A DNA stretch of 64,000 bases from assembly GCA_963457535.1 (NCBI GenBank), contig OY734803.1, positions 1,108,977-1,172,976 on the forward strand, given 5' to 3'. A program made the translations under genes and the position numbers. Below, piece after piece: positions 10,788 through 32,113 of this stretch. Each line of letters starts with the position of its first letter. The first letter of the stretch is position 1. Origin of the DNA: Arenicellales bacterium (GTDB lineage Bacteria; Pseudomonadota; Gammaproteobacteria; Arenicellales; Poriferihabitantaceae). The notes beneath the pieces were generated by a model. The model was given only the letters and a program-made list of their open reading frames with translations. It was not told the origin of the DNA and ran no database searches.

Positions 10788-11342
10788 ATGACCTGGCTGC
10801 TCGGCGGCATTGCGCTTTTTTTCGGCGCGCATCTCATTCCGGCCGCGCCGGCGATGCGCGCGCAACTCGCCGCGCGCATGGGCGAGCGCGGCTATCTGGT
10901 CGTGTTTTCCGCGCTGTCGTTCGCCGGGCTGTTCTGCATGATGCGCGGCCTGCGAACCGCCGAGCGCGTCGTGCTGTGGCAGCCGCCGGAAATCGCCGGC
11001 GCGGTCTCGGTGGTGCTGATGCTGCCGGCGCTGGTGATGATCGCCTCGGTCAAATTTGACAACCACATCGCGCGCGCCATTCGCCACCCGATGGCCTGGG
11101 GATTTTTGCTGTGGGCGGCCTGCCACTTTTTTGCCAACGGCGAATTGGACGCGCTGATTTTCTTCGGCGCATTCGCCGCGTATTTGATTTTTTATCTGCG
11201 CGCGCGCGCGGCCAAACGCGAATTCCGCGGCAAACCGAGTTGGCGGCTGGACGCGCTCGCGGTGGTCATCGGCATCGCCGCGTATGCGCTGCTCGGGTAT
11301 TTCCACCACGCGTTGTTTGGGGCATTTCCGGTTCCTTATTGA
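10788..11342 (+). CDS. NnrU-family integral membrane protein
   Basis: About 184 aa, 4-5 TM helices, FFGAHLIPA and WAACHFFANG motifs. Confidence 0.65.
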   Translation: MTWLLGGIALFFGAHLIPAAPAMRAQLAARMGERGYLVVFSALSFAGLFCMMRGLRTAERVVLWQPPEIAGAVSVVLMLPALVMIASVKFDNHIARAIRHPMAWGFLLWAACHFFANGELDALIFFGAFAAYLIFYLRARAAKREFRGKPSWRLDALAVVIGIAAYALLGYFHHALFGAFPVPY

Positions 11343-11373: not shown

Positions 11374-14358
11374 CTAGCCCGCGAAAATGCGCGCCGGGTC
11401 ATCCGTCCAATAGTGTTTGTATTTCTCCGGAACGCCGGACGGGTCATTGAACATGAACAACCTGACGCTGACGCGCTTTTGCTTTCCATGCTCAAATTTG
11501 TGCGGGTTCCGAACATCCCCAAACAGACGCTCATAGCCGTCGATTTTGTGTTGAGACGCGGTGTACACGGGCGTTTTCGGATCGACAAACACGATTCGGT
11601 ATTCGTTGTCGCGCCACATCCAAAAGACAAAGTCCGGCAGGAAGCGGCGGTATTCGTTTACCGAATGGTCATAGTAGGGAATGTGAATTTTGTCGACGCT
11701 CTCATCGATCTTGCTGAACATCCACGCGCGCCAGCCGGTGTCGCTTTTGGCGATCCACTCATCCAGCACATTGAGGAAGTCCACCTCGCTTCGGACTTTG
11801 ATGATGTGCTGCATGTAGTCGGTCGTTTCTTCGCCCAATATGATCGGCCGATAGTAGTGCTGAGCGAGCCGCTTGATTCGCAATTGCCGGAAAGTTTCTT
11901 CATCGGCCCCGCCGGCCCAGCGGTCAAACTCCTCGCGAACAATTTCCCCCTTCGCAAGTTTCTGGGCCAATGCGCTGATTTCTTCATCCGACGCCTTCCC
12001 TTTAATGACATTCCGGGCTTTTTCGCGCAGTTCTTCGACAAACTCCAGGCGCGCGCGGATTTCGCGGAAATGCACGATGTCCGCATTATCCGCGCTCTCG
12101 TCCAACTTCCGGACGCGGTCAAACGCCTTGCCGCTGCGCGAAATGTGCGCCAGCAACCGGCTTTGCAAAAAAGGCAGGGCGGCATATTCTTTTTCCGGGC
12201 GCTCCTCGGTCTTTTTCGGCTGCAGTATCCCGCGCAAGTCTTTGATTTGTTGCGCGTTCATTCCGTCGCGGACGGCGAACACGGAATCCGATGTCCGCGC
12301 AAGCCATTTCCCAAACCGTTCCTTCGTGGAACTGCTCATTGCAAACGGCGCTTGCGTCGCATCGCCGCGCGCCTCCTTGTAGTGCGGGACCAGCAAAGGC
12401 ATGCGCGCGCCGCCGACGGTCGGCCGCTTGGTCAGTTCAAAAGCATCCAGAATTTCCAGCGCGGCGCCTTTCTCCGCCTGCAGGCCATTAAGCACGGCGG
12501 AGACCGCTTTGCGGTTGGTGGCGAAAAGAAACAGCGTCTCCGGCGCCCTCGCCAATTTGAGATATTCTGCGAAATGCTCCCCGAACGCCCTCGCCTGTTC
12601 TTTTTTCAAATCAAGGCGGGACAAGCGGCGGCGCTCGCCGGAGAACGGCTCTATACGCACTCCGCGCCCGACCGACTGCACCACAAACTTTTTGGCGTCG
12701 CTTCCGCCGATGTTGATGAAGTTGATCACATTCGGGCGGTTGGAATCCCAACTCTCAAAGAAAGTACGGGAGCCCATCAGGATCGTAATCGGGCTTTCCT
12801 CCAGTCCGGCGAAAAACGACTCGTCACACAGCGCGCTGTTCTGTTCGTATCCGGCGAGAAAAGTATTGCGCCATTTTGCGGTGTTGCCGATGCGTATCAG
12901 CGCAAACGGCGCGTCCGCATTTTTCAGTTGGAACGCCAGTTCCTTATCGTCGTTGCTGCAGATATATTGCAGCGCGCTTTTGCCGCGGTTGAGAAAAACC
13001 GCCTCGCGCAAATCCTCCACCGACATCGCGGAAATCGCGGCGGTGTGAATTTCCCCCAACCCTCCGCCATTTTCGCCGAAGAGCAGCGGCGCGCGCTCCC
13101 ACTCGCGAACCAGCGCGCGCTTGGATTCATCAAACACCCGCGCGCTGATTTTTCCGGTGGCAATGTCCTGCAGGGTCTGAAAGAACGCCCACAAGTCATT
13201 GCGCCCGTCGGTCACATCGGTATTGACCGAGTTAACCAGCGTCAGCATCATCGGCGGATGGTAGAGTTTTTTGATGCCGGTCTTGTCGCGAATCGTGGCA
13301 ACACAGCGCACGACATGCGCGAGCGTTATCAGGGATTTCAAAACAATTTTCTGCCGCTCCGCCGGGCTGATCTCTTCCCGCCGGTTTTGGAATGCCGCGT
13401 ATTCCGATTCATTCAGGTAGATGCCCTTGCCGTGTCCGTTGGCAACAAACTCTTGGAGGTTGTATTTTTTGACGGTGGTAACGATGTCCACATCCTCAGT
13501 GAAAGTCGCGGAGAAATTAAACAGGAATCCCTCGCGCGCCATGAGCGCGTAATACGCCTGCCGCTTGGAATCATCCTTGCCTCCTTTGTGCGCCTCGTCC
13601 AGCAGCACATACCACTTGCCGCCGTTTTCATAGGTGCGGTAATCGGTCAGCGCCTCTTTTTGCACATCGGAAATGTTGTCGCTGCGGTGGTAATACACCG
13701 TGACCGAATCGCCAAGTTGGCTTTGATACGGCTGCCGGCCGGCCTCGCGCAGCGGCGCCAAATCAATCCGCAGGCCGCCGGCGCGGTTAAATTCGTCCAC
13801 GGTGCGGCGAATTTGCCGGAGCAAATGCGACGTTGGCGCGAGCAGGAGGATGTCGTGCGGCGGAATTTCGCGGCGCTGCCGGAGCGCATGCAGGTATTCC
13901 ATCAGTTTCACCATCACCAGCGTCTTGCCGCTGCCGGTCGCCATCCAGAAGCACATGCGGTTGATCAGGTGGTGATAGGGAATCGCGTCCCCCTGCGGCG
14001 CGATGAACTCGGAGAAAATCCGAAACATCGGGTTTTCTTTTTGGTTTTTTTCGTTTGCCGCGCTTTCATAGCGCGGTATCGCAAAATCGCTAAGTTGCAC
14101 TTGCCCGGTGCGCGAATACAAACCGGCAAAACTTTGCTTGCGGTTTTCGCTGTCCGCCGGAGTTTCGGCTGCCTGCCAGTCGTGGTCTTGCCCGTAGTAT
14201 CGGAACAATGCCCGCGCGGCTTTCTGCAGCGCGTCGATTTGGTAGCCGTAGAGTGTTTTTCCCGCGGAGAAGCGGTCGAGTTCGGGGATGCGCCAAACCT
14301 CCGGGAGGTCGGCGTAGTTTGCATTCTCGGCGATAGATTCGAGCAGCGGCAGAGTCAT
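11374..14358 (-). CDS. Type III restriction Res-like SF2 helicase with C-terminal PD-(D/E)xK nuclease
   Basis: Motif I ATGSGKT, motif II LLDEAHK, motif III SAT, motif VI QSVGRGVR. C-terminal LPDFVFW...IVFVDPK nuclease motif. ATGA overlap with the upstream gene. Confidence 0.85.
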   Translation of the reverse strand: MTLPLLESIAENANYADLPEVWRIPELDRFSAGKTLYGYQIDALQKAARALFRYYGQDHDWQAAETPADSENRKQSFAGLYSRTGQVQLSDFAIPRYESAANEKNQKENPMFRIFSEFIAPQGDAIPYHHLINRMCFWMATGSGKTLVMVKLMEYLHALRQRREIPPHDILLLAPTSHLLRQIRRTVDEFNRAGGLRIDLAPLREAGRQPYQSQLGDSVTVYYHRSDNISDVQKEALTDYRTYENGGKWYVLLDEAHKGGKDDSKRQAYYALMAREGFLFNFSATFTEDVDIVTTVKKYNLQEFVANGHGKGIYLNESEYAAFQNRREEISPAERQKIVLKSLITLAHVVRCVATIRDKTGIKKLYHPPMMLTLVNSVNTDVTDGRNDLWAFFQTLQDIATGKISARVFDESKRALVREWERAPLLFGENGGGLGEIHTAAISAMSVEDLREAVFLNRGKSALQYICSNDDKELAFQLKNADAPFALIRIGNTAKWRNTFLAGYEQNSALCDESFFAGLEESPITILMGSRTFFESWDSNRPNVINFINIGGSDAKKFVVQSVGRGVRIEPFSGERRRLSRLDLKKEQARAFGEHFAEYLKLARAPETLFLFATNRKAVSAVLNGLQAEKGAALEILDAFELTKRPTVGGARMPLLVPHYKEARGDATQAPFAMSSSTKERFGKWLARTSDSVFAVRDGMNAQQIKDLRGILQPKKTEERPEKEYAALPFLQSRLLAHISRSGKAFDRVRKLDESADNADIVHFREIRARLEFVEELREKARNVIKGKASDEEISALAQKLAKGEIVREEFDRWAGGADEETFRQLRIKRLAQHYYRPIILGEETTDYMQHIIKVRSEVDFLNVLDEWIAKSDTGWRAWMFSKIDESVDKIHIPYYDHSVNEYRRFLPDFVFWMWRDNEYRIVFVDPKTPVYTASQHKIDGYERLFGDVRNPHKFEHGKQKRVSVRLFMFNDPSGVPEKYKHYWTDDPARIFAG

Positions 14359-15353
14359 TTGGCTTTACCAATTCGAATGAGGATTCTTTCGGCCAAATTG
14401 CGAAAGTCTTTGTAACAACTCCGCACGGCATTTTGTTGCGCGCCGATCACACCATCAGCGGGTTTGAGCGCAAACATCGGTTTGTTCGCTTCTTGTGCCA
14501 GCGGCATCAGAGATCGGTAATCCTTCAAATGTGCAAGGCAATTTGAGTCTGCATCTATCGGCACGGAGCGGCCATGTTCTTCCTCAAGAACATGTTTCGC
14601 ATATTCCGCCGGCATTTTTTCGATCCATCGCAAATATGCCTTAACCGGACGATTGCGGATTGCAGTATGGCGCATGACGACATACCCGAGCGGCTGCATG
14701 CAGCCACCAGGCAATTTAAAACTCAGGTCATCGGGCTTCCGTTCGATGCGGTCAATCCAATCCGCGTGCCACTCACGCAGAGTCGGCCCCACATTGCGCA
14801 AACCCTGCAACGAAAACAAATCCGGTGCAAGCGGGATCACCACATAGTCGCTGGCAATCAGCGCAGAACGGTTGATTGCGCCAAGATTTGGGCCAACATC
14901 CAGAAGCGCCAAGTCTCTTTCGTGGCGCGCACCCACAGCGGCAATTTGCTCAGCAAAGGATGCTGTAAAACGCAGGGCACGCTCATTTTGGTTGCGCACC
15001 AGGCACCTGGGCCACTCCGCAGATAAATCATCTTCGATTGTGGAGAGCCGCAAATCCCCGACAAGCAACCCAATGCGCTCGTGCACCCCCAGAACGGAAG
15101 GTTTTTTTGTCATGTCCCCCGACCTGGCTTTAAACAGCGGTGCGATACTTCCATAGACCGTTTTTTCCTTTTCTTTTTCCCAAATCCTCTCCAAACGGGA
15201 CTCTTCCAAAAACATCCCACTCAGATTGGCTTGCGGGTCCAAATCAGCAGCGATCACTTTGTAATCGAGATCAGCAAACATGCAGGCGAGATGATAGACC
15301 AGCGAAGTTTTGCCCACGCCGCCTTTGTTGTTAAAAAATGCGATCGTTTTCAT
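14355..15353 (-). CDS. ParA/MinD-like P-loop ATPase (deviant Walker A)
   Basis: MKTIAFFNNKGGVGKTS...ADLDPQANLS. ATGA overlaps at both gene junctions. Confidence 0.8.
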   Translation of the reverse strand: MKTIAFFNNKGGVGKTSLVYHLACMFADLDYKVIAADLDPQANLSGMFLEESRLERIWEKEKEKTVYGSIAPLFKARSGDMTKKPSVLGVHERIGLLVGDLRLSTIEDDLSAEWPRCLVRNQNERALRFTASFAEQIAAVGARHERDLALLDVGPNLGAINRSALIASDYVVIPLAPDLFSLQGLRNVGPTLREWHADWIDRIERKPDDLSFKLPGGCMQPLGYVVMRHTAIRNRPVKAYLRWIEKMPAEYAKHVLEEEHGRSVPIDADSNCLAHLKDYRSLMPLAQEANKPMFALKPADGVIGAQQNAVRSCYKDFRNLAERILIRIGKAK

Positions 15354-16540
15354 GATTGTCGTTTGATCTTCACAAACACAAAGTTGCCTTCAACTCGAAA
15401 CTCCGGCGCAGGATTGCCATTCTCTCGCAACGCCTCGCGTGCGGCAGAAATGCCAAACCCAAAACTCTCCATAAACCCCAAGTTTTTCATCGCTGCTGAA
15501 ATTGTGGGATTGCGATACGCAGTGATCATCGGCTTGCCCAGGTCTTCGACTCGCAATCCGCCATGGATGGATCCCGGGCTGATGATCTCGATGCTACCAG
15601 AAAACCAATAAATGCGCACCGGGGCATTGTTGTTTTGATAGTCGCGGTGGATCACAGCATTGTGCGTCAGTTCACGCAGCGCTCGCTCGGGAAAATCAGG
15701 GCTCGCAATGTGTTTTGCTCCGCTTATATCCAGCGGGGCTTGAATGTTCAATTTCAGCAGACTGCCCAGTTCGCGCAGTTGTTCCGGCAAAGTTCCGCGT
15801 ATTTCCTTTTGGTCCACGACCGAGTCGGTAACTTCGTCCCCATCAAAGCGCACGAACTGAATGTATGCGCCGGGAAACCACTGTGCCGGATCGGTGCCCA
15901 GCATCAGAATTGCCGTCACAGTCGGCGTCCCTTCGGAAGTAACCAAGCGCGATGCGCGCAACTGATCAAACACACTGCGCTGATTTTCGACGAGCATTTC
16001 CGGCGACACCGCATGTAGCAGGTATTCACTTTCGAACTTCAGCATGTCCAGGTCGACATCCACCGATGCGCCACGCACTTCCTGCATGTCGTAAGAAACA
16101 TCTCTCAATTGCCGTTTCTCCGTCAGCAAACGTTCTTCCGAAGCGGAAGCCTGTTCGGTGCGCGGGCCGACGCGAACCCAGCACCGACTGTCCACTTTCA
16201 TCGGGGTATTGTCCGACGGCTCCACCTGTATCACAGCGATTCTGCATCCATTCAGAGTTCTCGCTTCTACGCTCATCACCGGGAAAGGGAGAATTTTCCC
16301 GTCTTTCCGCAATCCACCAAGTTTCTCCAGCAGTTCGGTGTCAATGCGCAGATTGGCGCAAGTCCTGTCATCGGCAATTCCGATGAAGAGAACGCCCGGC
16401 TTCCCGCTGGCCGGCAAGTCATTGGAGAAAGCACAAATCGCTTTCCGAAATTTTTCCAAATCAGTTGCCGACTGGGTGAACTCCGTGCGCTCGCTTTCGT
16501 GGTTGTCGATCAGTTTGATCAACTCGTCATCCGTCAGCAT
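15350..16540 (-). CDS. AlbA_2 (Schlafen-like, divergent AAA) plus HATPase_c_4-type putative DNA-binding/ATP-binding protein
   Basis: N-terminus ESERTEFTQS...KAICAFSNDL...GVLFIGIADD (AlbA_2 pattern). C-terminal half LRELTHNAVIHRDY...RNPTISAAMKNLGFMESFGFGI (RecG-like C-terminal ATP-binding module). Confidence 0.7.
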   Translation of the reverse strand: MLTDDELIKLIDNHESERTEFTQSATDLEKFRKAICAFSNDLPASGKPGVLFIGIADDRTCANLRIDTELLEKLGGLRKDGKILPFPVMSVEARTLNGCRIAVIQVEPSDNTPMKVDSRCWVRVGPRTEQASASEERLLTEKRQLRDVSYDMQEVRGASVDVDLDMLKFESEYLLHAVSPEMLVENQRSVFDQLRASRLVTSEGTPTVTAILMLGTDPAQWFPGAYIQFVRFDGDEVTDSVVDQKEIRGTLPEQLRELGSLLKLNIQAPLDISGAKHIASPDFPERALRELTHNAVIHRDYQNNNAPVRIYWFSGSIEIISPGSIHGGLRVEDLGKPMITAYRNPTISAAMKNLGFMESFGFGISAAREALRENGNPAPEFRVEGNFVFVKIKRQS

Positions 16541-16544
16541 CCCC

Positions 16545-18995
16545 TCACTCCCCCCACCACAAATACGGGCGGAGCAGCGACACGAAGCGCTGCTTTTCTT
16601 CCGCGGTCATTTTTGCCGGGTTGATTTTCTGCTCGCTACCGTCGGCGAAGACCACGCTGTCGGCGGTGCGGGCGCGGACGGGCATGCCGAGGGCATTGGC
16701 GAGGGTTTCGGCGATGTCAATGTCGGGATACATGCTGGGCAGGCCGTTTTCGCGGGTGATCGCAGGGGCGAGTTTATCATCTGCGAAGAAAACATACTGC
16801 GCAAACGGCGATTTTGCGCTGTCAATTTCCAGTTGCTCGCCGTCTTCGTAGCGGGCGTTGCGCAGGGTTTCTTCGTATTGTTCCAGCGCGTAATATTTGA
16901 ACGCGCCGCCGCCTTTGTAGTCGGTTTCTTTGCTGATGCCGGATTGGTGGCCGGACAGCACTTTTTTCATGCGCGGCAAAATCACGGTGTTGAAGTGGTC
17001 GCCCATTTCCACGCCCAGCCATTTTCGGCCGAGTTTTTGGGCGACTGCTTGGGTCGTGCCGCTGCCGGAGAAAAAGTCACACACGACGCCTTCGCCGGAA
17101 AACGCGGACAAACAACGCATTAAAAGTTCTTCTGAGTTTTCGGTTTTGAACTCCCACGCCCGAGTGTAACCGGGTATGTCGGTCCAATTATTTTTGAGGT
17201 TTCGCCAAAGCGGCCAGTATTTTGCGCGGCCATTTTTGATCTTGACGCGCTGATGTTCGGATAGTTCGTCAAGTTGAGCTTGCGAAAGTCCCCATTGCCG
17301 CCCTTTCGGCGCAAAGATTTCTTTTCCGCCAATAATGCGGGATTCAGGAGCGCCTTCGCGCGCGCCCCTTGCCGGCAGAAACGGTTCGTGCCAGACCTCA
17401 TCCCGTCGAGGAACACGCAAACGGTTGATGTTGGTTTTCCCGCTTTTTCCCGCCAGAAAAAGACTGTCCACATCGTTCATGAGTTTTCGCTGTAAAGGAG
17501 TCGGGCTCTTAAAAAACTCCTGGGTTCGATTGACGACAATTTCGTTCAAAAAATTGTCACTGCCGAAAATGCTGTCAAGCAAACAACGCACAATCCAATT
17601 CCCGTTGATGTCACAGCGCACGAAAATACCGCCGTCTTCGGACAGAAAATTCTGTGCAAGTTTCAGTCGGTTCTCCAGCATAGTCGCCCAGCACGAATCT
17701 TTGTAGTTCGTGCGGTAGTCAAACTGGTCGCTGCTGTCCAGATTAAACGGCGGGTCAATGTAAATGCATTTGACCTTTTCCGCATACCGTTTTTGCAGCG
17801 TATTCAAGGCCTGCCAGTTTTCGCCATGCACAAATTCGCCGTCCAGCGCTTCGTCCAGATTGCCCAGCGCGGCCAGAATGTCCAACTCCAGATTTTTGAA
17901 ATGCCGCGTGTCCAGCGGCAAAAACTTGCAGTCCTTGCGCGCGCCGGCAATTTCGCCGGCGGGAAACTTCCCGTCCACCAGACCGAGTTCCCGCCATTCT
18001 TCCACTTGCGCTTTTGCGCCTTTGTGGGCGGCGATCTTTTTCAGCAGGCCGGACTTCTCCGCCAGTTTGTCCAGCGTAACGACATAGTTGAGCCCGCGCA
18101 CAAATTTCGGCTTCTCCCATACGCGGCGCAGTTCATCCTCAAACTGCGCGATGAAATCAATGATGTCGTAGGCGGTTTTTTTGACCGCCTGCAGTTGCGC
18201 GACGCGATTTGCGCCAAAGTCGCTCTCCTCCTTGTAGAGGTATTGAAACATCCACAAGTCAAATTGCTCGCGCAAAAATCCCCCGGCGTCCTTGTTGATG
18301 AAAAAGTCGGCTTCCACCTGGCGGCGGAAAACATTGATCGCTTTTTGCAGTTGCTCCTCGGACAGCGAAACAATTCCGTTCTCGCGGGCTTTTTTGAGGA
18401 TGTCGCCGGTTTTGGTTTTGCCGCTCCCTTTTTTGTAAGAGACGGCGAGATGGACGACCTTGTTGCCGTCTTCGGACTTTACCGCGCCAAATTCAAAAAC
18501 GAATTCTTTGCGCTCGTTGTTCTGCTTGTTTTCCACGCCGGCGGCGTCAAAGAAAAAACGCCGGGTGTTTTGCGGCTTGCCTTCCTCTTCCAGCGTTACC
18601 GGCAGCGACTGCACCAGCACATCGGATTTGACATAGTAGAGATTGCGCGTCTTCCACGACAGCGCGACATCCTGGCCGTCCGCATAGACGCGCTCGTAAG
18701 TCTTGGCGAATGCCGGCAGGTGGCGGAAGTAGATGGAGCCGCTCTCGCAAAAGTAGCGGCTGAAAAAGTCGTGGAGTTTATCGAACAACTCCTCGCGAAA
18801 AGCCGAGTTCTTTTCGGCGCGCGCGTCAATTTTGGCGAGCAGTTTCGGGCGGAGCGATTGAAAGTGCTTGCGCTTCACCCGCATCAGGTTGACGAAGCCG
18901 GAATCGCCCTCCACTTCGGCGCCGGTGAACAGGGATTCCAGCGCGTCCAGAAAGCGCTTTTCCTTGGTCCCGCTTGTGGTGGTTTGGTCTGGCAT
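16545..18995 (-). CDS. Type III Mod-like beta-class DNA methyltransferase with long N-terminal extension
   Basis: Motif IV CIYIDPPFN followed by motif I DFFSGSGTTQAVA. The N-terminal DFFINKDAGGFLREQFDLWMFQY resembles a segment seen in large defence-associated MTases. Its stop and the next start are arranged TGAGGGGATG. Confidence 0.85.
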   Translation of the reverse strand: MPDQTTTSGTKEKRFLDALESLFTGAEVEGDSGFVNLMRVKRKHFQSLRPKLLAKIDARAEKNSAFREELFDKLHDFFSRYFCESGSIYFRHLPAFAKTYERVYADGQDVALSWKTRNLYYVKSDVLVQSLPVTLEEEGKPQNTRRFFFDAAGVENKQNNERKEFVFEFGAVKSEDGNKVVHLAVSYKKGSGKTKTGDILKKARENGIVSLSEEQLQKAINVFRRQVEADFFINKDAGGFLREQFDLWMFQYLYKEESDFGANRVAQLQAVKKTAYDIIDFIAQFEDELRRVWEKPKFVRGLNYVVTLDKLAEKSGLLKKIAAHKGAKAQVEEWRELGLVDGKFPAGEIAGARKDCKFLPLDTRHFKNLELDILAALGNLDEALDGEFVHGENWQALNTLQKRYAEKVKCIYIDPPFNLDSSDQFDYRTNYKDSCWATMLENRLKLAQNFLSEDGGIFVRCDINGNWIVRCLLDSIFGSDNFLNEIVVNRTQEFFKSPTPLQRKLMNDVDSLFLAGKSGKTNINRLRVPRRDEVWHEPFLPARGAREGAPESRIIGGKEIFAPKGRQWGLSQAQLDELSEHQRVKIKNGRAKYWPLWRNLKNNWTDIPGYTRAWEFKTENSEELLMRCLSAFSGEGVVCDFFSGSGTTQAVAQKLGRKWLGVEMGDHFNTVILPRMKKVLSGHQSGISKETDYKGGGAFKYYALEQYEETLRNARYEDGEQLEIDSAKSPFAQYVFFADDKLAPAITRENGLPSMYPDIDIAETLANALGMPVRARTADSVVFADGSEQKINPAKMTAEEKQRFVSLLRPYLWWGE

Positions 18996-19017
18996 TGCGG
19001 ATTTTCCTGCGCGGGCG

Positions 19018-19046
19018 ATTTTACCGGATTATTTTTCCGGTGTAAA
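19018..19046 (-). promoter_or_regulatory. candidate sigma70 promoter of the four-gene methyltransferase operon
   Basis: On the minus strand: TTTACA, a 17-nt spacer (ccggaaaaataatccgg, with CCGG arms), then TAAAAT. An AGGAAA Shine-Dalgarno lies 8 nt before the ATG at 18995. Confidence 0.5.
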
Positions 19047-19109: not shown

Positions 19110-20471
19110 TCAGCCGGTAACCTCGTCCACCGCTTCGCGCACGATGGTCACGATTTCTTCCAGCACCGATTCGTCGGTGATCAGCGGCGGCGCGATGCAG
19201 ATTACTTCGCTGCGAACGCGCGTGTACAGGCCGCGTTTCATCAGCGCGCCGGTCAGTTTTGCGCCGAGGCCGAATTCGGGCGGGTACCATTTCTTGGAGG
19301 ACTTGTCTTCCACCACTTCCACGCCGGCCATCATTCCCAGTCCGCGCACATTGCCGACATGCGCGTGGTCGTCCAGCGCGGCATGCAGTTTGTCCAGCAG
19401 GAATTTCCCCTTGCGCGCGGCCTGCCCCGGCAGGTCTTCGTTCTGGATGATGTCCAGCGTCGCCAGCGCGACCGCGCAGGTGGTCGGGTGGCCGCTGTAG
19501 GTGTAGGCGTGCATCCACGGCGTTTTGCCCGAGGTGATGGTCTCGGCGATTTCGTCGCTCATGCCGATGCCGCCGAGCGGCAATGCGCCGGAAGTGATGG
19601 ACTTGGCGAACTGCATCAGGTCGGGCTCCACGCCGTAGTGCTGCAGGCCGAACATTTTTCCGGTGCGCCCGAAGCCGGTGATGACTTCGTCCGACACCAT
19701 CAGCACTTCGTAGTGATCGCAGATTTCGCGAATGCGCGCGAAGTAGTCGTCCGGCGCGACTATCACGCCGCCCGCGCCCTGCACCGGCTCGGCGATGAAC
19801 ATGGCGACGGTGTCGGCGCCCTGCTTCAGGATTTCCTTTTCCAATTCGTTCGCCGCGGCGATGCCCGGGGACGAGCCGTCGGCCGGCGCCGGGTAGTGGT
19901 AGGGGTCGGGCGACGGAATGTGGCTGAAGCCCGGAATCACCGGCGCGAACGCCGGCCAGTAGGAACTGATGCCGGTCGCGCACATCGCCGCCATGGTCAC
20001 GCCGTGGTAGCCCCAGATGCGGCCGATGACTTTGGTTTTGTCCGGCTTGCCTTTCGCCTTCCAGTAGGAGCGCGCGAGTTTGATGTTGCTGTCGGTCGCC
20101 TCGCCGCCGCCGCAGGTGAAGTAGAAGTTGTTGATGCGCGGATAGACGATGCCGGAGAGCCGCTCGGCCAGGTCAATCGCCGGGCGGTTGGTGCCGCCGG
20201 CGTAAGTGGAACTGAACGCGAGCGCGTCCATTTGCGCGGCCGCGGCGTCGCGCAGTTCGCGCCGCCCGTGCCCGGCGCTGACATTCCACAGGCACGACAG
20301 GCCGTCAATGAATTTGTTGCCGTCGGCGTCGTATAAATGCGCGCCCTCGCCGCGCACCCAGACGCGCGCGTTGGCGTGGCCCGCGGTGTGGTGCAGCGGG
20401 TGAATCAGGTGGCGGTGGTCGCGCGCCAGCAACTCGGCATTGCCGGCATCTTGGGGGACATTGATGTTCAT
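19110..20471 (-). CDS. class-III (omega-amino acid/pyruvate-type) PLP aminotransferase
   Basis: About 453 aa with SGGEATDSNIKLAR-like, DEVITGFGRTG and SKSITSG (here AKSITSG) Lys motifs. Confidence 0.85.
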   Translation of the reverse strand: MNINVPQDAGNAELLARDHRHLIHPLHHTAGHANARVWVRGEGAHLYDADGNKFIDGLSCLWNVSAGHGRRELRDAAAAQMDALAFSSTYAGGTNRPAIDLAERLSGIVYPRINNFYFTCGGGEATDSNIKLARSYWKAKGKPDKTKVIGRIWGYHGVTMAAMCATGISSYWPAFAPVIPGFSHIPSPDPYHYPAPADGSSPGIAAANELEKEILKQGADTVAMFIAEPVQGAGGVIVAPDDYFARIREICDHYEVLMVSDEVITGFGRTGKMFGLQHYGVEPDLMQFAKSITSGALPLGGIGMSDEIAETITSGKTPWMHAYTYSGHPTTCAVALATLDIIQNEDLPGQAARKGKFLLDKLHAALDDHAHVGNVRGLGMMAGVEVVEDKSSKKWYPPEFGLGAKLTGALMKRGLYTRVRSEVICIAPPLITDESVLEEIVTIVREAVDEVTG

Positions 20472-20485
20472 GGGCGCCTCTTGTC

Positions 20486-21031
20486 GTGAATTCGGGCATG
20501 CAGTATATTATTTTTGGCGGCGCGCCGCCCGGCATAAAAGTGTTCTCCGAAGTTTCCACCGAATCCGACATTCACGCGGTCGCCGCCCTGGCGAACGAGA
20601 TTTGGCGCGAACACTACGAGCCGATCATCGGGCTGGCGCAGGTGGAATATATGCTGGAAAAATTCCAGTCGGCGGCGGCGATCGCGGCGCAGATTGCGGA
20701 GGAGGGGTTTTGCTATTACCTGATTCGCGCGGAGGGTCAGGGGGACATCGGCTATCTCGGCTTTCAGTGCGAGGGGGCGGTGATGTTTCTCAGCAAACTC
20801 TATGTGAAGAAATCGGCGCGCGGTCAAGGGGTTGGGGCGCGCGCGGTGGGGTTTTTGCGGGGGCTTGCGGGGGCGCAGGGAATGCAGAAAATTCGGCTGA
20901 CGGTGAATAAAGGGAATGCGCTTGCGATTGCCGCTTATGAGCGCGCGGGCTTTACTCGCACCGGGGAAGTGGTCATTGATATTGGGGGCGGGTATGTGAT
21001 GGATGATTTTGTGTTTGAGGTGGGGGTTTAG
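20486..21031 (+). CDS. GNAT-family N-acetyltransferase
   Basis: LYVKKSARGQGVGARAV (Q/RxxGxG/A acetyl-CoA motif) and AIAAYERAGF. The exact start is uncertain (alternative Met at MQYIIF). Confidence 0.75.
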   Translation: MNSGMQYIIFGGAPPGIKVFSEVSTESDIHAVAALANEIWREHYEPIIGLAQVEYMLEKFQSAAAIAAQIAEEGFCYYLIRAEGQGDIGYLGFQCEGAVMFLSKLYVKKSARGQGVGARAVGFLRGLAGAQGMQKIRLTVNKGNALAIAAYERAGFTRTGEVVIDIGGGYVMDDFVFEVGV

Positions 21032-21053
21032 GGGGATGGGGTATAATGGGGGT

Positions 21054-22556
21054 ATGAGTGCTGATGCAGACAAGGCGCGGGCGGCCGCGCGCGTGGAAAC
21101 CGTCAAAGCATTTATCGACTGGGCGGAAAAGCGCGGGGGGCGGTCGTTGCTCTACCGGGGACTTGCTGATGCCAACTGGGAGGTGGAATCCGCGGCATAT
21201 CGACGAATCAAAAAGCCGAGCGGGGCGAAACTCATCCCCCAGGAAATTCCCGGAGTGTTCAAAAACTACATCTCGCAATTGCTTGAAAAATCAAGTATGC
21301 GCGATTTTCGAATGCACGAAGGCAATGAACTGCCCGATCTTAAGTTGCTGGCGCGATTGCAGCACTACGGTGCGGCAACTTGCTTGATCGACTTCACTCA
21401 GAATCCTTTGGTGGCACTGTGGTTCGCTTGCCAAGAGCAACCGAAAAAAGACGGGAAAGTAATTGTCATGGATACAGGTGCGGATGTAACTATCCCGAAT
21501 CTGAGCAAGGTCGCGCAACGGGAGAGTGCATTTCACAAAGTCGGCCCGGAGCAACTCGCACTCAAAGAAGGCGAAATTGTAAAACTCCTCGGCGGTGAAA
21601 ATCTGTGGATATGGGAGCCAACTCCCCGGGAAAGCCGAGTCATCGCCCAACAGTCAATCTTTGTTTTTGGGCCGGCAATGATCGAGGAGCATGCAATGCT
21701 TGAAGAGCATTATGGGGAAGTTCGCATACCTGAATCTGCGAAAGAAAAAATCCTCCATGCACTGGACAAAAAGTTTGGGATAAATGAAGCGAGTTTGTTC
21801 GGCGATTTCGCCGGCTTTGCGCTCGCCAACGCGCATGACAAATCCTATGAAGAACACAGTGCGGATGACTACTTTGAGTTCGCTGAGTCATTTTTTCAAA
21901 GAGAAGACGCAAAAAAAGCAATACGCTATTGCGATAAAGCGATTGCGAAAAATAAGCGGCATGTCGGCGCGCACTATCTGCGCGGATTGTGCAATCGCCG
22001 TCTGGGGGAAATGCAGGAAAGCGTCAAAGATTTCTCACAAGCTCTTGAAGCCGATCCCGCGCATATGCCCTCTCTTTGGGAGCGCGCCTGGATGTATCTG
22101 ACCGCACTGAACAGAGCAGAAGACGCACTGGATGACTACAACACAATCATTGAGATTGCGTCAAACAACAAGCACAAGTACTACGACCGGCTGGCTCATG
22201 CATATAAGCGTCGCGGATATGCATACATGAATCTGAAAGGGTATCAGAATGCAGAAGATGACTTCACGAAAATTATTGAACTTTTTTCAAGCAGTGGGCG
22301 CAAAATTCGCCCTTGGCTGTTCGTATCCGCATATCAGGACCGTGGGCGCGTGCGGGCAGTTCGGGGAAATCATCAAGGCGCCATTGAAGATTTTACTTTC
22401 GCAATCCAGAGACACCCTGGACCTATCCTCTTTCGTGACAGGGCAAAAAGTTACCGTGCGCTGGGAGACGAAAGTGCTGCAAAGGCTGACGAAAGCAAGG
22501 CGGAAAGTATTATAGAAAGTGTCCGCCGACATCACGAGCGGTCGCGCGGTGCATAA
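21054..22556 (+). CDS. FRG-domain protein with C-terminal TPR repeats
   Basis: LLYRGLADANWEVESAAYRR and ARLQHYGAATCLIDFTQNPLVALWFA match the FRG signature as I remember it. The C-terminal ~230 aa shows TPR-like periodicity (AIRYCDKAIAKN..., AHAYKRRGYAYMNLKGYQNAEDDF...). Start placed at the Met following a TATAAT box. Low GC. Confidence 0.7.
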   Translation: MSADADKARAAARVETVKAFIDWAEKRGGRSLLYRGLADANWEVESAAYRRIKKPSGAKLIPQEIPGVFKNYISQLLEKSSMRDFRMHEGNELPDLKLLARLQHYGAATCLIDFTQNPLVALWFACQEQPKKDGKVIVMDTGADVTIPNLSKVAQRESAFHKVGPEQLALKEGEIVKLLGGENLWIWEPTPRESRVIAQQSIFVFGPAMIEEHAMLEEHYGEVRIPESAKEKILHALDKKFGINEASLFGDFAGFALANAHDKSYEEHSADDYFEFAESFFQREDAKKAIRYCDKAIAKNKRHVGAHYLRGLCNRRLGEMQESVKDFSQALEADPAHMPSLWERAWMYLTALNRAEDALDDYNTIIEIASNNKHKYYDRLAHAYKRRGYAYMNLKGYQNAEDDFTKIIELFSSSGRKIRPWLFVSAYQDRGRVRAVRGNHQGAIEDFTFAIQRHPGPILFRDRAKSYRALGDESAAKADESKAESIIESVRRHHERSRGA

Positions 22557-22586
22557 CTGCGCACTTTTACGGGCTATAATCGCGCG

Positions 22587-23927
22587 ATGAGCGTGAAGCC
22601 CAACACTTTGTTCACCGGCGACAATCTCTACATCCTCGCCGGCATGGACAGCGAGAGCGTGGATTTGATTTATCTGGATCCGCCGTTCAACAGCAAGCGG
22701 CTCTACAAGGCGCCCATCGGCAGCAAGGCGGCCGGCGCGGCGTTCAAGGACATGTGGAGTTGGGACGATGTGGATCAGGCGCGGCTGGAGTCGCTGCTGG
22801 AAGAGTACCCGTCGCTTTTTTATTTGGTGAGTTTCACCGGGCTTTCGCATTCCAAGGGAATGGCCGCGTATCTCCTCTACATGGCGCAGCGGCTGGTGGA
22901 GATGAAGCGTGTGCTGAAGCCGACCGGGTCGGTTTACCTGCACTGCGACCCGACCGCGTCGCATTACTTAAAGGCGCTGATGGACATGATTTTCGGCAAG
23001 GCGCAGTTTCTCAATGAAATCGTCTGGTATTACCCGGGCGGACTCAAGCGCGCCGGCAAGCAGTTTCCCCGCGAGCATGACATCGTGCTGTTTTATTCGC
23101 GCACGAGCGACCGCAGCCGCGTGTTTAACCTGCAGCGCCGCGAAGTTACGCGCGATGTCGCCTTGTGGCAGCGCTGGGGAAAATACAGCAGCGACAACCA
23201 AACCGTAAAGTTTGGTGAAATTCCGGTCACCGACAAGGTGAACCGGGAGCGCCAAATTAAAAAGTTTGCCAACAAACACGGCCGGCAGCCGAAAGATACG
23301 GACGTCGCATACACGCTTGAAGGCGCGATTGTGGAAAGCGTGTGGGACGACTGCCCGGCGGTGTACCGCAGCAGCGAGCGCACCGGCTACCCGACGCAAA
23401 AACCGCTCTCGCTGCTGGACCGAATTATTGAGGCATCCAGCAATCCCGGCGACGTGGTCTTTGACCCGTTCTGCGGCTGCGCGACCACATGCGTCTCCGC
23501 GCAAAACTTGCGCCGCAAATGGATCGGCATTGACATCAGCGAAGTCGCGGCCACGCTGGTTGCCGAGCGGCTGGCGGACGCGCACGGGAAAATCTTCACC
23601 AACTTCACGCACCGCAGTGATGTGCCGGTGCGGACCGACATTAAACTGGTGGACCTCAGCGTCCCCAAAACCAAAACGGCGATCAAAAAGCGGCTTTACA
23701 AAGAGCAGAAAGGCATTTGCAACGGCTGCCTGGTCGCGTTTGAAGCGCGCAATCTGGATATTGACCACATCATCCCCGAATCAAAGGGAGGCCCGAGCCA
23801 CTACGACAACTACCAACTGCTGTGCGGAAACTGCAACAGCATCAAGGGCAACCGCCCGATGGAATATTTGCGCGCCAAAATCAAGGCGCGCAACGACGCG
23901 CTGGACATGCAGGTCAGTTTCGGCTGA
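22587..23927 (+). CDS. beta-class DNA methyltransferase fused to a C-terminal HNH nuclease
   Basis: Motif IV LIYLDPPFN, motif I DPFCGCATTCVSA, then C-terminal CNGC...DIDHIIPESKGGPSHYDNYQLLCGNCNSIKGN (CxxC...H-N-H...CxxC). Confidence 0.8.
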   Translation: MSVKPNTLFTGDNLYILAGMDSESVDLIYLDPPFNSKRLYKAPIGSKAAGAAFKDMWSWDDVDQARLESLLEEYPSLFYLVSFTGLSHSKGMAAYLLYMAQRLVEMKRVLKPTGSVYLHCDPTASHYLKALMDMIFGKAQFLNEIVWYYPGGLKRAGKQFPREHDIVLFYSRTSDRSRVFNLQRREVTRDVALWQRWGKYSSDNQTVKFGEIPVTDKVNRERQIKKFANKHGRQPKDTDVAYTLEGAIVESVWDDCPAVYRSSERTGYPTQKPLSLLDRIIEASSNPGDVVFDPFCGCATTCVSAQNLRRKWIGIDISEVAATLVAERLADAHGKIFTNFTHRSDVPVRTDIKLVDLSVPKTKTAIKKRLYKEQKGICNGCLVAFEARNLDIDHIIPESKGGPSHYDNYQLLCGNCNSIKGNRPMEYLRAKIKARNDALDMQVSFG

Positions 23928-29989: not shown

Positions 29990-30035
29990 TCTCGAAATTA
30001 TTATTTGCTCACATCTCTGTCAATCAATCGGAAAA

Positions 30036-31229
30036 ATGGCTGCAACTGAAAAACCCAGCACGGTGCGCTTTGCCAAGGCGGTGGCGCTTCTTAAGCAAGA
30101 CATCGACGATCTCGAAAATGCCTTGCAGCAAGCAGGGGTTCCCGTCTTTGCGGAAATCGCCAGCCTTGAGGAAATCCCGAAAGCAAAAAGGAAAGACATC
30201 GAAAATCGACTGTGGCTGATATTGGCTTACGGTGAGTATCCCGTGGAAAAACTGTGGTCGGAAATGTGGTCATCATTGGACATGTTGCTTTCCATTGCAA
30301 AAAGCGACTGGCCTATCCGGTTCTACGCAACCAAATACAAAAAGGAATTTCGCCAAAAAATCAAACGCATTCTCGGTGCTGAAAATGCTCCTTCACGCAC
30401 TCACGTCGAACTGTGGATTGTGAAACAGGAAGTAGCTCCCATGGTGTTCCCCTTGCAGAGTTTCATCGACGAGGTCGACATCAATGACTACGTACATATG
30501 GCGCGAAATGGAATCTTACTGGATGAATGCATCAAACCCTACATTAACGCTCCCTCTCAGCATGCCCGTGAAGATGCCTCCATCTTCGAGAGCTTTCGCA
30601 AGATTGGGTCGGTTGCAGGGGACTATTACCTTCTGCTTGTTGATAAAGATCACGAGGGCAAACTGGCTTCTGACTACCGCGAACCCCGAACCTATTTTGG
30701 TAAGGATGGCCCCATCGAAGGGGAAGTGGAGTACGACAAAAAATGGATTGGGTTGCTGCAATACGATCTGTCCTCTTTCGATGAGATCATCCACAAGCGC
30801 TACTTTACTCCCGATGCCTGGGTGCAAAATGAAAGTAAACTTCTTCCAATCGCTATCACGGAAGAAGAGAAAAAGATACGGCCGCACATCCGCGAGCGAT
30901 TGCATGAGATTTATCATGCTTTCATTTTCAGCAACTGGATCGCAGTGGTTGCGCTGTCGCGCTGCCTACTGGAATATGCACTCGTCGACAAAGAGGATCT
31001 CCTCAAAATCAATGCTTACGAAAAAAATCAGCGAGTGAAGAGACTCTCTTGCTTGATTGCAGATGCCAAAAAAACCCGCCCCAAACTGGGAGGGTTTATG
31101 GCGCGCATAAAAGATGCCGGCGATGCTGTGATGCACCCGCAAAAAGACAGTCGCCTGCCCGACAAAGAAGCGGCGAGAAATTGCATCACTGACATCACCA
31201 AAATCGTAAGCGCCTTATACAGCGAGTAA
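30036..31229 (+). CDS. hypothetical protein; C-terminal ~110 aa is DUF4145-like
   Basis: Start set at MAATEKP, because the upstream part of the ORF is antisense to the Fe-S gene. Markedly low GC. The C-terminal RERLHEIYHAFIFSNWIAVVALSRCLLEYAL...ARIKDAGDAVMHPQ resembles the DUF4145 helical pattern. The N-terminal 280 aa is unrecognised. Confidence 0.55.
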   Translation: MAATEKPSTVRFAKAVALLKQDIDDLENALQQAGVPVFAEIASLEEIPKAKRKDIENRLWLILAYGEYPVEKLWSEMWSSLDMLLSIAKSDWPIRFYATKYKKEFRQKIKRILGAENAPSRTHVELWIVKQEVAPMVFPLQSFIDEVDINDYVHMARNGILLDECIKPYINAPSQHAREDASIFESFRKIGSVAGDYYLLLVDKDHEGKLASDYREPRTYFGKDGPIEGEVEYDKKWIGLLQYDLSSFDEIIHKRYFTPDAWVQNESKLLPIAITEEEKKIRPHIRERLHEIYHAFIFSNWIAVVALSRCLLEYALVDKEDLLKINAYEKNQRVKRLSCLIADAKKTRPKLGGFMARIKDAGDAVMHPQKDSRLPDKEAARNCITDITKIVSALYSE

Positions 31230-31300
31230 TTTTCTCGCTGTTGGGCGCTGGCGCATGGAAATCGGCGCAAACATCCTCCATTTATACGGAATTATTTAAC

Positions 31301-31329
31301 TTGACATTCCGTTCCGTACGCGGTATTTT
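31301..31329 (+). promoter_or_regulatory. candidate sigma70 promoter of the structured leader and OMP gene
   Basis: TTGACA (31301-31306), 17-nt spacer, TATTTT (31324-31329). Confidence 0.5.
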
Positions 31330-31336
31330 CACCCCC

Positions 31337-31457
31337 GCATAAGAGACACGATCCGCATTGCCGGGTCGCTCGTGAATACAACACCGCGATTAAGGGACGG
31401 CCCGGCCAGGTCGTTCTGCGGAAATCAGCGGGGAGTGCACTTTCGTGTCTCTTATGC
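31337..31457 (+). promoter_or_regulatory. structured 5' leader RNA domain (unclassified riboswitch/attenuator candidate)
   Basis: Perfect 14-bp closing helix gcataagagacacg (31337-31350) / cgtgtctcttatgc (31444-31457). It encloses nested helices 31352-57/31417-22 and 31360-68/31398-406. Confidence 0.5.
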
Positions 31458-31462
31458 AACGG

Positions 31463-31488
31463 CCCGGCACCAGTGCCGGGGTTCTTTT
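31463..31488 (+). terminator. intrinsic terminator within the leader, 25 nt before the OMP start codon
   Basis: cccggca/tgccggg 7-bp stem, 4-nt loop, then gttctttt. Confidence 0.6.
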
Positions 31489-31513
31489 AATCTCCCTTGC
31501 ATAGGAGACCACA

Positions 31514-32113
31514 ATGAAGAAGTACACTTGCGTTTTCGCGACGCTCGTCGCGCTCTGCTTCACTTTCGCCAATGCAACGCATGCCCAACAAGATCTGCCC
31601 GAGGTGACTCTCGGTGCATACTATGGGCCGTCGAAAATCGAACTGACCGGAGCGGGCGCACTTCAAGGCTCGGTGACCGGAACCGGCCGTGAAGTTGGCG
31701 TGTTTTTGCAAGTCCACCAAGGCATGTTCGGCTTGCACGGTGCGTTTGGCGTAAACTCCACGAAAGTCGACGCCACAATCAGAAGGTTTGGGCAGCAAGA
31801 TTCTTTCACAGAAAAAGCCGGACGTTCCCTTGACTTGATGGGCATGCTGTTCATCGAGGGCAGGAGAATCAACGGTATTGGAATGCTGGGATTTACCAGA
31901 TTCGAGACCGAAGCATCCGGCGATATCAGCGGAGGCGGCTTCATCACCGGGCTGAAATACGCGGTAGGTTTTGATGTCCCATTCCCCAATGGATGGGTCG
32001 CCCAACTAGCGTACGAATACGCGAACTTGGGCGAACTCAACATCACCGGTACAGCCGACAGATACGAACTCGAAGAATCCGGCTTACGCCTCCGCATCGG
32101 TGCGCGTTACTAG
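31514..32113 (+). CDS. small outer-membrane beta-barrel protein (OMP_b-brl-like)
   Basis: Signal peptide MKKYTCVFATLVALCFTFANATHAQ, alternating beta-strand pattern, C-terminal aromatic residue (...RIGARY). Confidence 0.7.
   Translation: MKKYTCVFATLVALCFTFANATHAQQDLPEVTLGAYYGPSKIELTGAGALQGSVTGTGREVGVFLQVHQGMFGLHGAFGVNSTKVDATIRRFGQQDSFTEKAGRSLDLMGMLFIEGRRINGIGMLGFTRFETEASGDISGGGFITGLKYAVGFDVPFPNGWVAQLAYEYANLGELNITGTADRYELEESGLRLRIGARY

Follow-up and report, generated by a model that had tools for sequence, protein, structure and literature searches.

Do four coupled genes on one strand make up a single defence system, or is one system carried inside another? The question is raised by a 64,000-nucleotide stretch of an Arenicellales genome (contig OY734803.1; hereafter the window), in which an operon of four minus-strand genes encodes a Type III-like DNA methyltransferase (Mod; 16545-18995, 816 aa), a Schlafen-like AlbA_2 protein with a GHKL ATPase domain (15350-16540, 396 aa), a ParA-like ATPase (14355-15353, 332 aa) and a Res-like helicase-nuclease (11374-14358, 994 aa), each as an intact open reading frame (ORF). 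The initial annotation of this DNA had placed the four genes at these positions and proposed them as one new multi-gene system. Our results make it probable that the operon is instead a Type III-like restriction-modification (R-M) pair with an independent Schlafen/ParA-like cassette, a second line of defence, nested in a cargo slot between mod and res.

A scan for homologues of the ParA-like protein, one genome per species, returned 80 loci, which span Gammaproteobacteria, Nitrospinota, Chloroflexota, Acidobacteriota, Planctomycetota, Cyanobacteria, Actinomycetota and other groups. Immediately upstream of the ParA-like gene, every one of the 80 has an AlbA_2+HATPase_c_4 gene (74 full length and 6 partial, two of the latter truncated where the contig ends). 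A 4-nt overlap joins the two genes in 56 of 77 loci; in 20 of the 21 others they stand no more than 8 nt apart, one reading being anomalous. The pairwise-identity matrices of the two proteins are correlated (Mantel r = 0.63, a value reached by 0 of 999 permutations), and natural in-frame AlbA_2+GHKL+ParA-like fusions occur in P0387 (731 aa) and in a metagenome-assembled genome of the Dehalococcoidia (L006 8783-11005). A further candidate fusion, P0509, was not counted, since its arginine-rich out-of-frame stretch suggests a frameshift artefact.

The pair occurs independently of the R-M genes. The Mod/Res family of the window is present only in L003, L004 and L006 among the 80 pair loci, with a 38-aa Mod remnant in L008, and the pair stands without this family in the other 76. 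It mostly adjoins unrelated genes of the housekeeping kind (gyrA, uvrA and those for aminoacyl-tRNA synthetases, for example), and a minority of its neighbours are DUF1156, DUF499, SNF2 or ResIII genes; no ParB-like family was found among the neighbours of the pair in the 80 loci. Literature searches on ParA with Schlafen, on ParA with SIR2 and on AAA_31 in defence turned up no description of the pair, and selected sections of four papers on prokaryotic Schlafen (pSlfn) or Schlatpase proteins (10.1101/2025.07.24.666596; 10.64898/2026.05.29.728809; PMC13462974; PMC12839542) mention no ParA-like partner. One apparent match, 10.1101/2025.09.30.679098, was rejected, 'para' being found there only within other words. 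The pair is apparently an undescribed, very widespread and self-contained two-gene cassette.

The R-M genes, in turn, occur without the pair. A metagenome scan based on a Res alignment yielded 80 distant relatives, all of full length (31-39% identity), and the ParA-like gene is absent from the mod-res region in 80/80 of these loci; one of them, L140, shows a weak and partial match to the ParA family some 3 kb upstream of mod. In 40 of 64 distant loci that have the two genes on the same strand, mod directly abuts res, and the core in the window is accordingly a two-gene system that has received an insertion. In the other 24, between one and three ORFs on that strand, tightly packed, separate mod from res. 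This cargo comprises Fic/DOC (6), RhuM (5), DUF6119 (4), SLFN_AlbA_2 (4, three with HATPase_c_4), HepT/MNT (HepT in 2) and ThsB_TIR (2), together with DUF3800, DarT with Macro, MjaI with a methyltransferase (an R-M pair), DUF4365 and SNase.

Among close relatives of Res (13 contexts, 55-100% identity, window included), the mod-res slot is filled in every case and its content varies. The pair is found immediately upstream of res in six of these contexts (the window, L084, L003, L207, L215 and L006), and in L215 it again overlaps res by 4 nt; it lies upstream of mod in L208 and downstream of res in L004. The slot of L205 contains an AlbA_2 gene alone. In the remaining 4 of 13 contexts the pair is absent and other cassettes only are present: an AAA_15/21 ATPase with a small ORF (L206), an AAA_21 ATPase (L213), a methyltransferase with a HATPase_c_3 protein and a 393-aa ORF (L212), and DUF4145 with two ThsB_TIR genes (L214).

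Two other cassettes recur at such loci. An ImmA/IrrE gene (Peptidase_M78, RmrA-like in PADLOC) followed by a DUF4411 gene travels as a unit in the slot, often just upstream of the pair (L003 6901-8546; L207 3119-4773; L006 4499-6144; L208 5819-6955). An AAA_15/AAA_21 ATPase resembling AriA, PD-T4-4_A and HEC-02A, followed by a protein of about 185 aa with no Pfam match, is found in the slot or beside the pair (L004 6681-8614; L009 6214-8156; L006 6803-8547; L206 5050-7020; L215 2786-4746).

A natural deletion series separates the two modules at the locus itself. Two sister genomes (L209 and L210, from European Nucleotide Archive sample ERZ21781341) have the same gene order as the window and flanks that are 95-97% identical to it at the nucleotide level. 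They lack the segments that correspond to 16817-19013 (minus strand; Mod aa 1-722) and 11800-14239 (minus strand; Res aa ~41-853), and their R-M genes are reduced to a 72-nt piece, the 3'-terminal 94 codons of mod and the initial 40 codons of res. The two middle genes are undamaged, and the promoter-like site of the window still stands ahead of them. It follows that the four-gene state was ancestral at this locus and that the pair has outlived the R-M genes. Inside the ParA-like gene, a mosaic stretch (14667-15257, minus strand) is only 56-64% identical to the sister genomes at the nucleotide level, versus 90-97% across the AlbA_2 gene and 90-95% beyond the mosaic (compared with L210 9001-9999). 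At the protein level, the ParA-like ATPase is 69% identical to its sister allele, versus 94% for its AlbA_2 partner. These values mark an allelic replacement confined to the ATPase, which is consistent with the ATPase being the part that meets the phage.

As the initial annotation had proposed, the four-gene composition falls outside the named defence systems: no four-gene system in PADLOC, NCBIfam or Pfam fits it, PADLOC recognises only Mod (MTase_III) and, weakly, Res, and the middle genes have no match to signature proteins of the multi-gene systems in PADLOC v2 (BREX, DISARM, Dnd, Septu, PARIS, Thoeris and others). The domain calls for all four genes were likewise confirmed by Pfam matches, and the motifs named for Mod and Res (DPPF then FxGxG; helicase superfamily 2, SF2, motifs and PD...D-x-K) are all present.

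Mod (N6_N4_Mtase, 2.9e-26) has an N-terminal region of about 380 aa and shows DPPF followed by FSGSG, the order of a beta-class N6-adenine methyltransferase. It fits the REBASE-derived Type III profile of PADLOC end to end (MTase_III PDLC03638, 1.3e-235, residues 10-778) and matches the Type III Mod structures 6k0w and 4zcf_A (EcoP15I Mod) in the Protein Data Bank (PDB). Res matches ResIII (1e-14), DEAD (3.1e-9) and a YagJ region; its motifs I, II, III and VI read ATGSGKT, DEAH, SAT and QSVGRGVR, and a C-terminal PDF...DPK (D909, D926, K928) follows. The helicase and PDF...DPK motifs show no variation in 20 homologues and are largely retained in a set of 52 that includes relatives with 31-39% identity, PDF...DPK being mostly kept in the distant ones. 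PHROGs gives Res the generic label 'DNA helicase'. No sequence match to any PDB chain was found for Res, EcoP15I Res included. Its AlphaFold2 model, built from 20 sequences, has a mean predicted local distance difference test (pLDDT) score of 62.5, below 50 in the helicase part, and returned nothing from the PDB at E <= 0.001; the model is too poor for a fold search, and the nuclease fold is therefore assigned from motifs only. Mod and Res are, by sequence, a Type III-like R-M pair, a two-gene core with an insertion. The operon resembles EcoP15I-type systems in the class, motif order and full-length profile match of Mod, in the SF2 core and C-terminal PD...D-x-K motif of Res and, across the wider family, in mod lying directly before res. 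It differs from them in that Res fits the Type III profile (PADLOC REase_III) only in the helicase core (8e-19) and in the two extra genes that part mod from res.

The first of these two genes encodes SLFN_AlbA_2 (2.2e-13) followed by HATPase_c_4 (PF13749, 4.3e-17), the 'Schlatpase' architecture. Of 55 sequences, 54 keep the acidic residues of the Schlafen motif (E15 and E20), and the N-box of the GHKL domain is conserved in the family. At the lysine position of the E-x4-(E/D)-x-K motif, 30 of 55 sequences have Lys and 25 have Thr, the window protein belonging to the latter (T22). The structural model is weak (pLDDT 58.9), its domain-level PDB matches being nonetheless coherent: 3lmm, the N-terminal domains of SLFN11/14/5/12, the SAMD9 tRNase and GHKL kinases. 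The entry 3lmm is DIP2311 of Corynebacterium diphtheriae, an uncharacterised product of structural genomics. PADLOC matches only the Schlafen parts of pAgo-associated proteins, NCBIfam assigns no family to the protein, and its NCBI name is 'putative DNA binding domain-containing protein'. By its acidic residues, N-box and fold matches, the effector side looks functional.

Prokaryotic Schlafens are described as anti-phage tRNases (10.1101/2025.07.24.666596; PMC13462974), and Schlafen proteins with anti-phage activity are reported (10.1101/2025.07.24.666596; PMC12632615). The commonest architectures in prokaryotes are HisKinase (34%) and HisKinase-HTH (19%) (10.1101/2025.07.24.666596). The SLFN+GHKL supradomain is exchanged among pAgo, NACHT and R-M loci (10.64898/2026.05.29.728809), Schlafen-ATPase proteins are reported beside R-M, BREX and CRISPR loci (PMC13462974), and Schlafen-HisK-wHTH proteins within BREX-type loci have been proposed as backup suicide RNases (PMC12839542). 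The window protein shares the SLFN_AlbA_2 and PF13749 GHKL domains of this Schlatpase/pSlfn HisKinase class; it differs in that its clade has a ParA-like partner in every locus examined and Thr in place of the motif Lys.

The second gene encodes a ParA-like protein (AAA_31, 1.2e-27; CbiA, 8.3e-13) with the deviant Walker A motif KGGVGKT (K10 and K15); these two lysines, D37/D39 and D152 are all invariant. It matches an uncharacterised structure, 3pg5, from end to end (1.7e-28), and an extension of about 100 aa is common to both. The entry 3pg5 may be DIP2308 of C. diphtheriae, near DIP2311 (3lmm), in which case the two structures would come from one locus. Homologues number in the thousands, the best 120 all being at least 60% identical, and a profile search at E <= 1e-30 gives 678 clusters at 50% identity. 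PADLOC yields only a Walker-A-level match to PDC-M28B (1.2e-4), and PHROGs the generic label 'ParA-like partition protein'. Like the ATPase of ParABS systems, the protein is a deviant Walker A ATPase of the ParA/MinD family. It departs from them in having no ParB or centromere partner, in its chromosomal, islet-borne setting next to a Schlafen/GHKL gene and res, and in belonging to a family that has the extension seen in 3pg5 and whose partners are nuclease or NADase (NAD-degrading) effectors.

The partner of the ParA-like ATPase is swapped across the family. In five loci, two on plasmids and three on viral contigs, a SIR2 gene comes next after a full-length relative of 30-34% identity (L081 6001-7856; L082 6001-7889; L183 8001-9835; L184 4787-6621; L185 1-1853), and on both plasmids (Vibrio and Spirosoma) the two genes overlap by 4 nt. 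The SIR2 partners resemble those of ThsA, LmuA and Dsr, and PADLOC v2 contains no model for the ATPase, whether as partner of SIR2 or of a Schlafen protein. In P0430 (545 aa), the ATPase is fused to a C-terminal RES domain. More distant full-length relatives (357-358 aa) stand alone, directly downstream of a repressor gene, in the immunity regions of the P22-like phage ST160 (L083 3995-5068) and of an E. coli prophage (L211 4001-5077, the one examined; 109 E. coli genomes have a match). Further relatives are carried on plasmids, next to Abi, recombinase and Type I R genes. The family thus occurs beside SIR2, fused to RES, fused to the AlbA_2 protein, or alone.

A functional precedent may be GiPD474 (WP_000368620.1), a ParA-like AAA_31 protein from the immunity region of Gifsy-1, which as a single gene defends Salmonella and E. 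coli from FO1, T4 and Alf5 (PMC12724215). Its roughly 360 aa make up a ParA/MinD-like AAA_31 ATPase whose C-terminal part is uncharacterised (PMC12724215), and it occupies a slot next to a prophage repressor, as do the relatives of the window protein in phage ST160 and in the E. coli prophage. It works alone, whereas the window ATPase is coupled to a Schlafen protein. GiPD474 was not found in the phage collection.

These comparisons show the composite architecture, the independence of the two modules, the cargo slot, the swapping of partners and the fusions; for the functions, the following division of labour may be proposed. Mod would methylate host DNA and Res would cut unmethylated incoming DNA, as a first line. 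The mod-res junction is a slot filled with different toxin or defence cassettes in different genomes. The cassette in the window would be a second-line, probably abortive-infection module that uses the promoter of the R-M genes and has no need of their proteins. We infer for it an anti-phage role, an RNA target and a sensing partner: the ParA-like ATPase would act as a switch or sensor that depends on nucleotide, with the Schlafen domain as an RNA-cleaving (tRNA-type) effector. A constant ParA-like ATPase with a varying toxic partner (Schlafen nuclease, SIR2 or RES) would match the usual sensor- or switch-plus-effector design of abortive systems. A bolder version of this, to which we give more tentative credence, is that the pair constitutes a novel anti-phage system of two genes, very widespread: a ParA/MinD-type ATPase, perhaps by reading the state of the DNA or nucleoid, would switch interchangeable toxic effectors (a Schlafen RNase in the window, SIR2 and RES NADases in relatives), and the frequent nesting of the pair before res would be a functional layering with restriction.

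The nesting of cassettes within R-M operons is a theme already known. In EcoprrI-PrrC, an anticodon nuclease is embedded in a Type I R-M operon, and the R-M proteins keep PrrC, a single protein, in a latent state. The operon studied here is similar in that the gene of a putative RNA-targeting suicide effector is nested and co-transcribed in an R-M operon, with a plausible logic of first line and backup. It is dissimilar in having a cassette of two genes and a Type III-like frame, and in that the pair persists without R-M genes, which makes it unlikely that masking by the R-M enzyme is essential.

Several observations weigh against the nested-cassette reading. The anti-phage function of the pair is one that we infer from sequence and context, both structure models (Res and the AlbA_2 protein) are of low confidence, and the link of GiPD474 to the ParA-like family is circumstantial, by size, domain and slot. 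With the motif Lys replaced by Thr in the clade of the window, nuclease activity is not assured; moreover, the two pSlfn genes shown to be protective in 10.1101/2025.07.24.666596 do not include the Schlafen+HisKinase class. Most pair loci adjoin housekeeping genes and not recognisable defence islands. Finally, about half of the close relatives have the pair just before res, in many cases overlapping it by 4 nt, which leaves room for a functional interaction with the R-M enzyme.

That last point is the natural starting place for an integrated four-component system, in which the Schlafen/GHKL and ParA-like proteins would serve the Type III-like enzyme as accessory subunits or regulators. Translational coupling extends to all four genes, the pair directly precedes res in 6/13 close relatives, with the 4-nt overlap seen in L215 as well, and many genomes hold close homologues of both Res and the pair. 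We nevertheless regard such a system as quite unlikely: the pair lacks this Mod/Res family in 76/80 loci, Mod/Res lack the pair in 80 distant and 4 close loci, the position of the pair varies (L208, L004), unrelated cassettes occupy the same slot, and the sister genomes keep the pair after the loss of mod and res. A fixed four-gene unit is rejected on this neighbourhood analysis. Of the original proposal of one new system, the genes and their coupling stand and the conserved unit does not; the association of the middle genes with mod/res is frequent but optional, with variable position and sisters that keep the pair alone. Since the four genes are not a conserved unit, the lack of conserved co-occurrence that the initial annotation had itself named as evidence against its proposal is largely what was found. 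Its further suggestion, that the middle genes form an abortive or guard layer, survives for an independent nested cassette and not for subunits of the restriction enzyme. The location of the pair between mod and res, and the frequent annotation of Schlafen+GHKL proteins as DNA-binding or regulatory, would also suit C-protein-like transcriptional controllers that time res after mod. This is very improbable, as the pair is independent of any R-M system in most loci, both of its proteins retain enzymatic motifs and the slot also houses toxins with no regulatory role.

A different possibility is that the pair is a selfish stabilisation module, either a toxin-antitoxin (TA)-like addiction module or a ParA with a DNA-binding adaptor for maintenance, which retains the islet and has no role against phages. 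The ParA-family ATPase and the NCBI name of its partner would fit such a module, as would the survival of the pair through the decay of its neighbours, its frequent place among housekeeping genes and the classical TA modules (HepT/MNT and DarT/Macro) among the co-resident cargo. Yet no ParB-like gene accompanies it and its loci are on chromosomes; members of the ParA-like family are paired with or fused to NAD-degrading effectors typical of defence (SIR2 and RES), relatives occupy the moron slots of prophage immunity regions, and anti-phage activity of Schlafens is on record (10.1101/2025.07.24.666596; PMC12632615). We therefore hold a purely selfish role to be unlikely, and the TA and abortive-defence readings are in any case not mutually exclusive.

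If the pair is a defence module, as the nested-cassette reading has it, it would add a ParA/MinD-type ATPase, a class tied so far to DNA segregation and the positioning of cell components, to the short list of conserved switches that drive swappable suicide effectors. It would also supply a function for a family of hundreds of 50%-identity clusters and for the orphan structures 3pg5 and 3lmm. The locus is a clear Type III-like example of an R-M operon that carries second-line cassettes, and the natural deletion series shows which part is retained once restriction is lost. For annotation, it teaches the caution that translational coupling alone is insufficient for calling a new multi-gene system.

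That coupling itself reads as first described, in agreement with the ORFs and with the sequences of all three junctions. The Mod/AlbA_2 gene junction is TGAGGGGATG, and ATGA overlaps join the AlbA_2 gene to the ParA-like gene (15350-15353) and the latter to res (14355-14358). The four genes are predicted to be co-transcribed. A promoter-like site, TTTACA-17-TAAAAT (19018-19046, minus strand; 10/12 matches), lies 22 nt 5' of the Mod ATG, in a region where such sites number 4 against 3.1 expected, so that the class is not above chance; a terminator-like hairpin of the upstream gene (19089-19070) precedes it. The islet is bounded on one side by an NnrU-family gene convergent with res (10788-11342, plus strand) and on the other by a housekeeping class-III aminotransferase gene (19110-20471, minus strand). 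Its lower GC content than that of its neighbours, also part of the initial annotation, is borne out (0.52-0.58 at 11-19 kb, versus 0.62-0.65 on both flanks).

Past the aminotransferase gene lies a second low-GC patch (21003-23927; 0.51-0.54), which encodes an FRG-domain/TPR protein (21003-22556) and a fusion of an N6_N4 methyltransferase with an HNH nuclease (22587-23927). The latter gene is present in two copies in the sister locus L210 (1107-2363 and 2539-3879). The composition profile shows further low GC at positions 1-2000 and 30001-32000 of the window (0.48-0.53, versus ~0.63).

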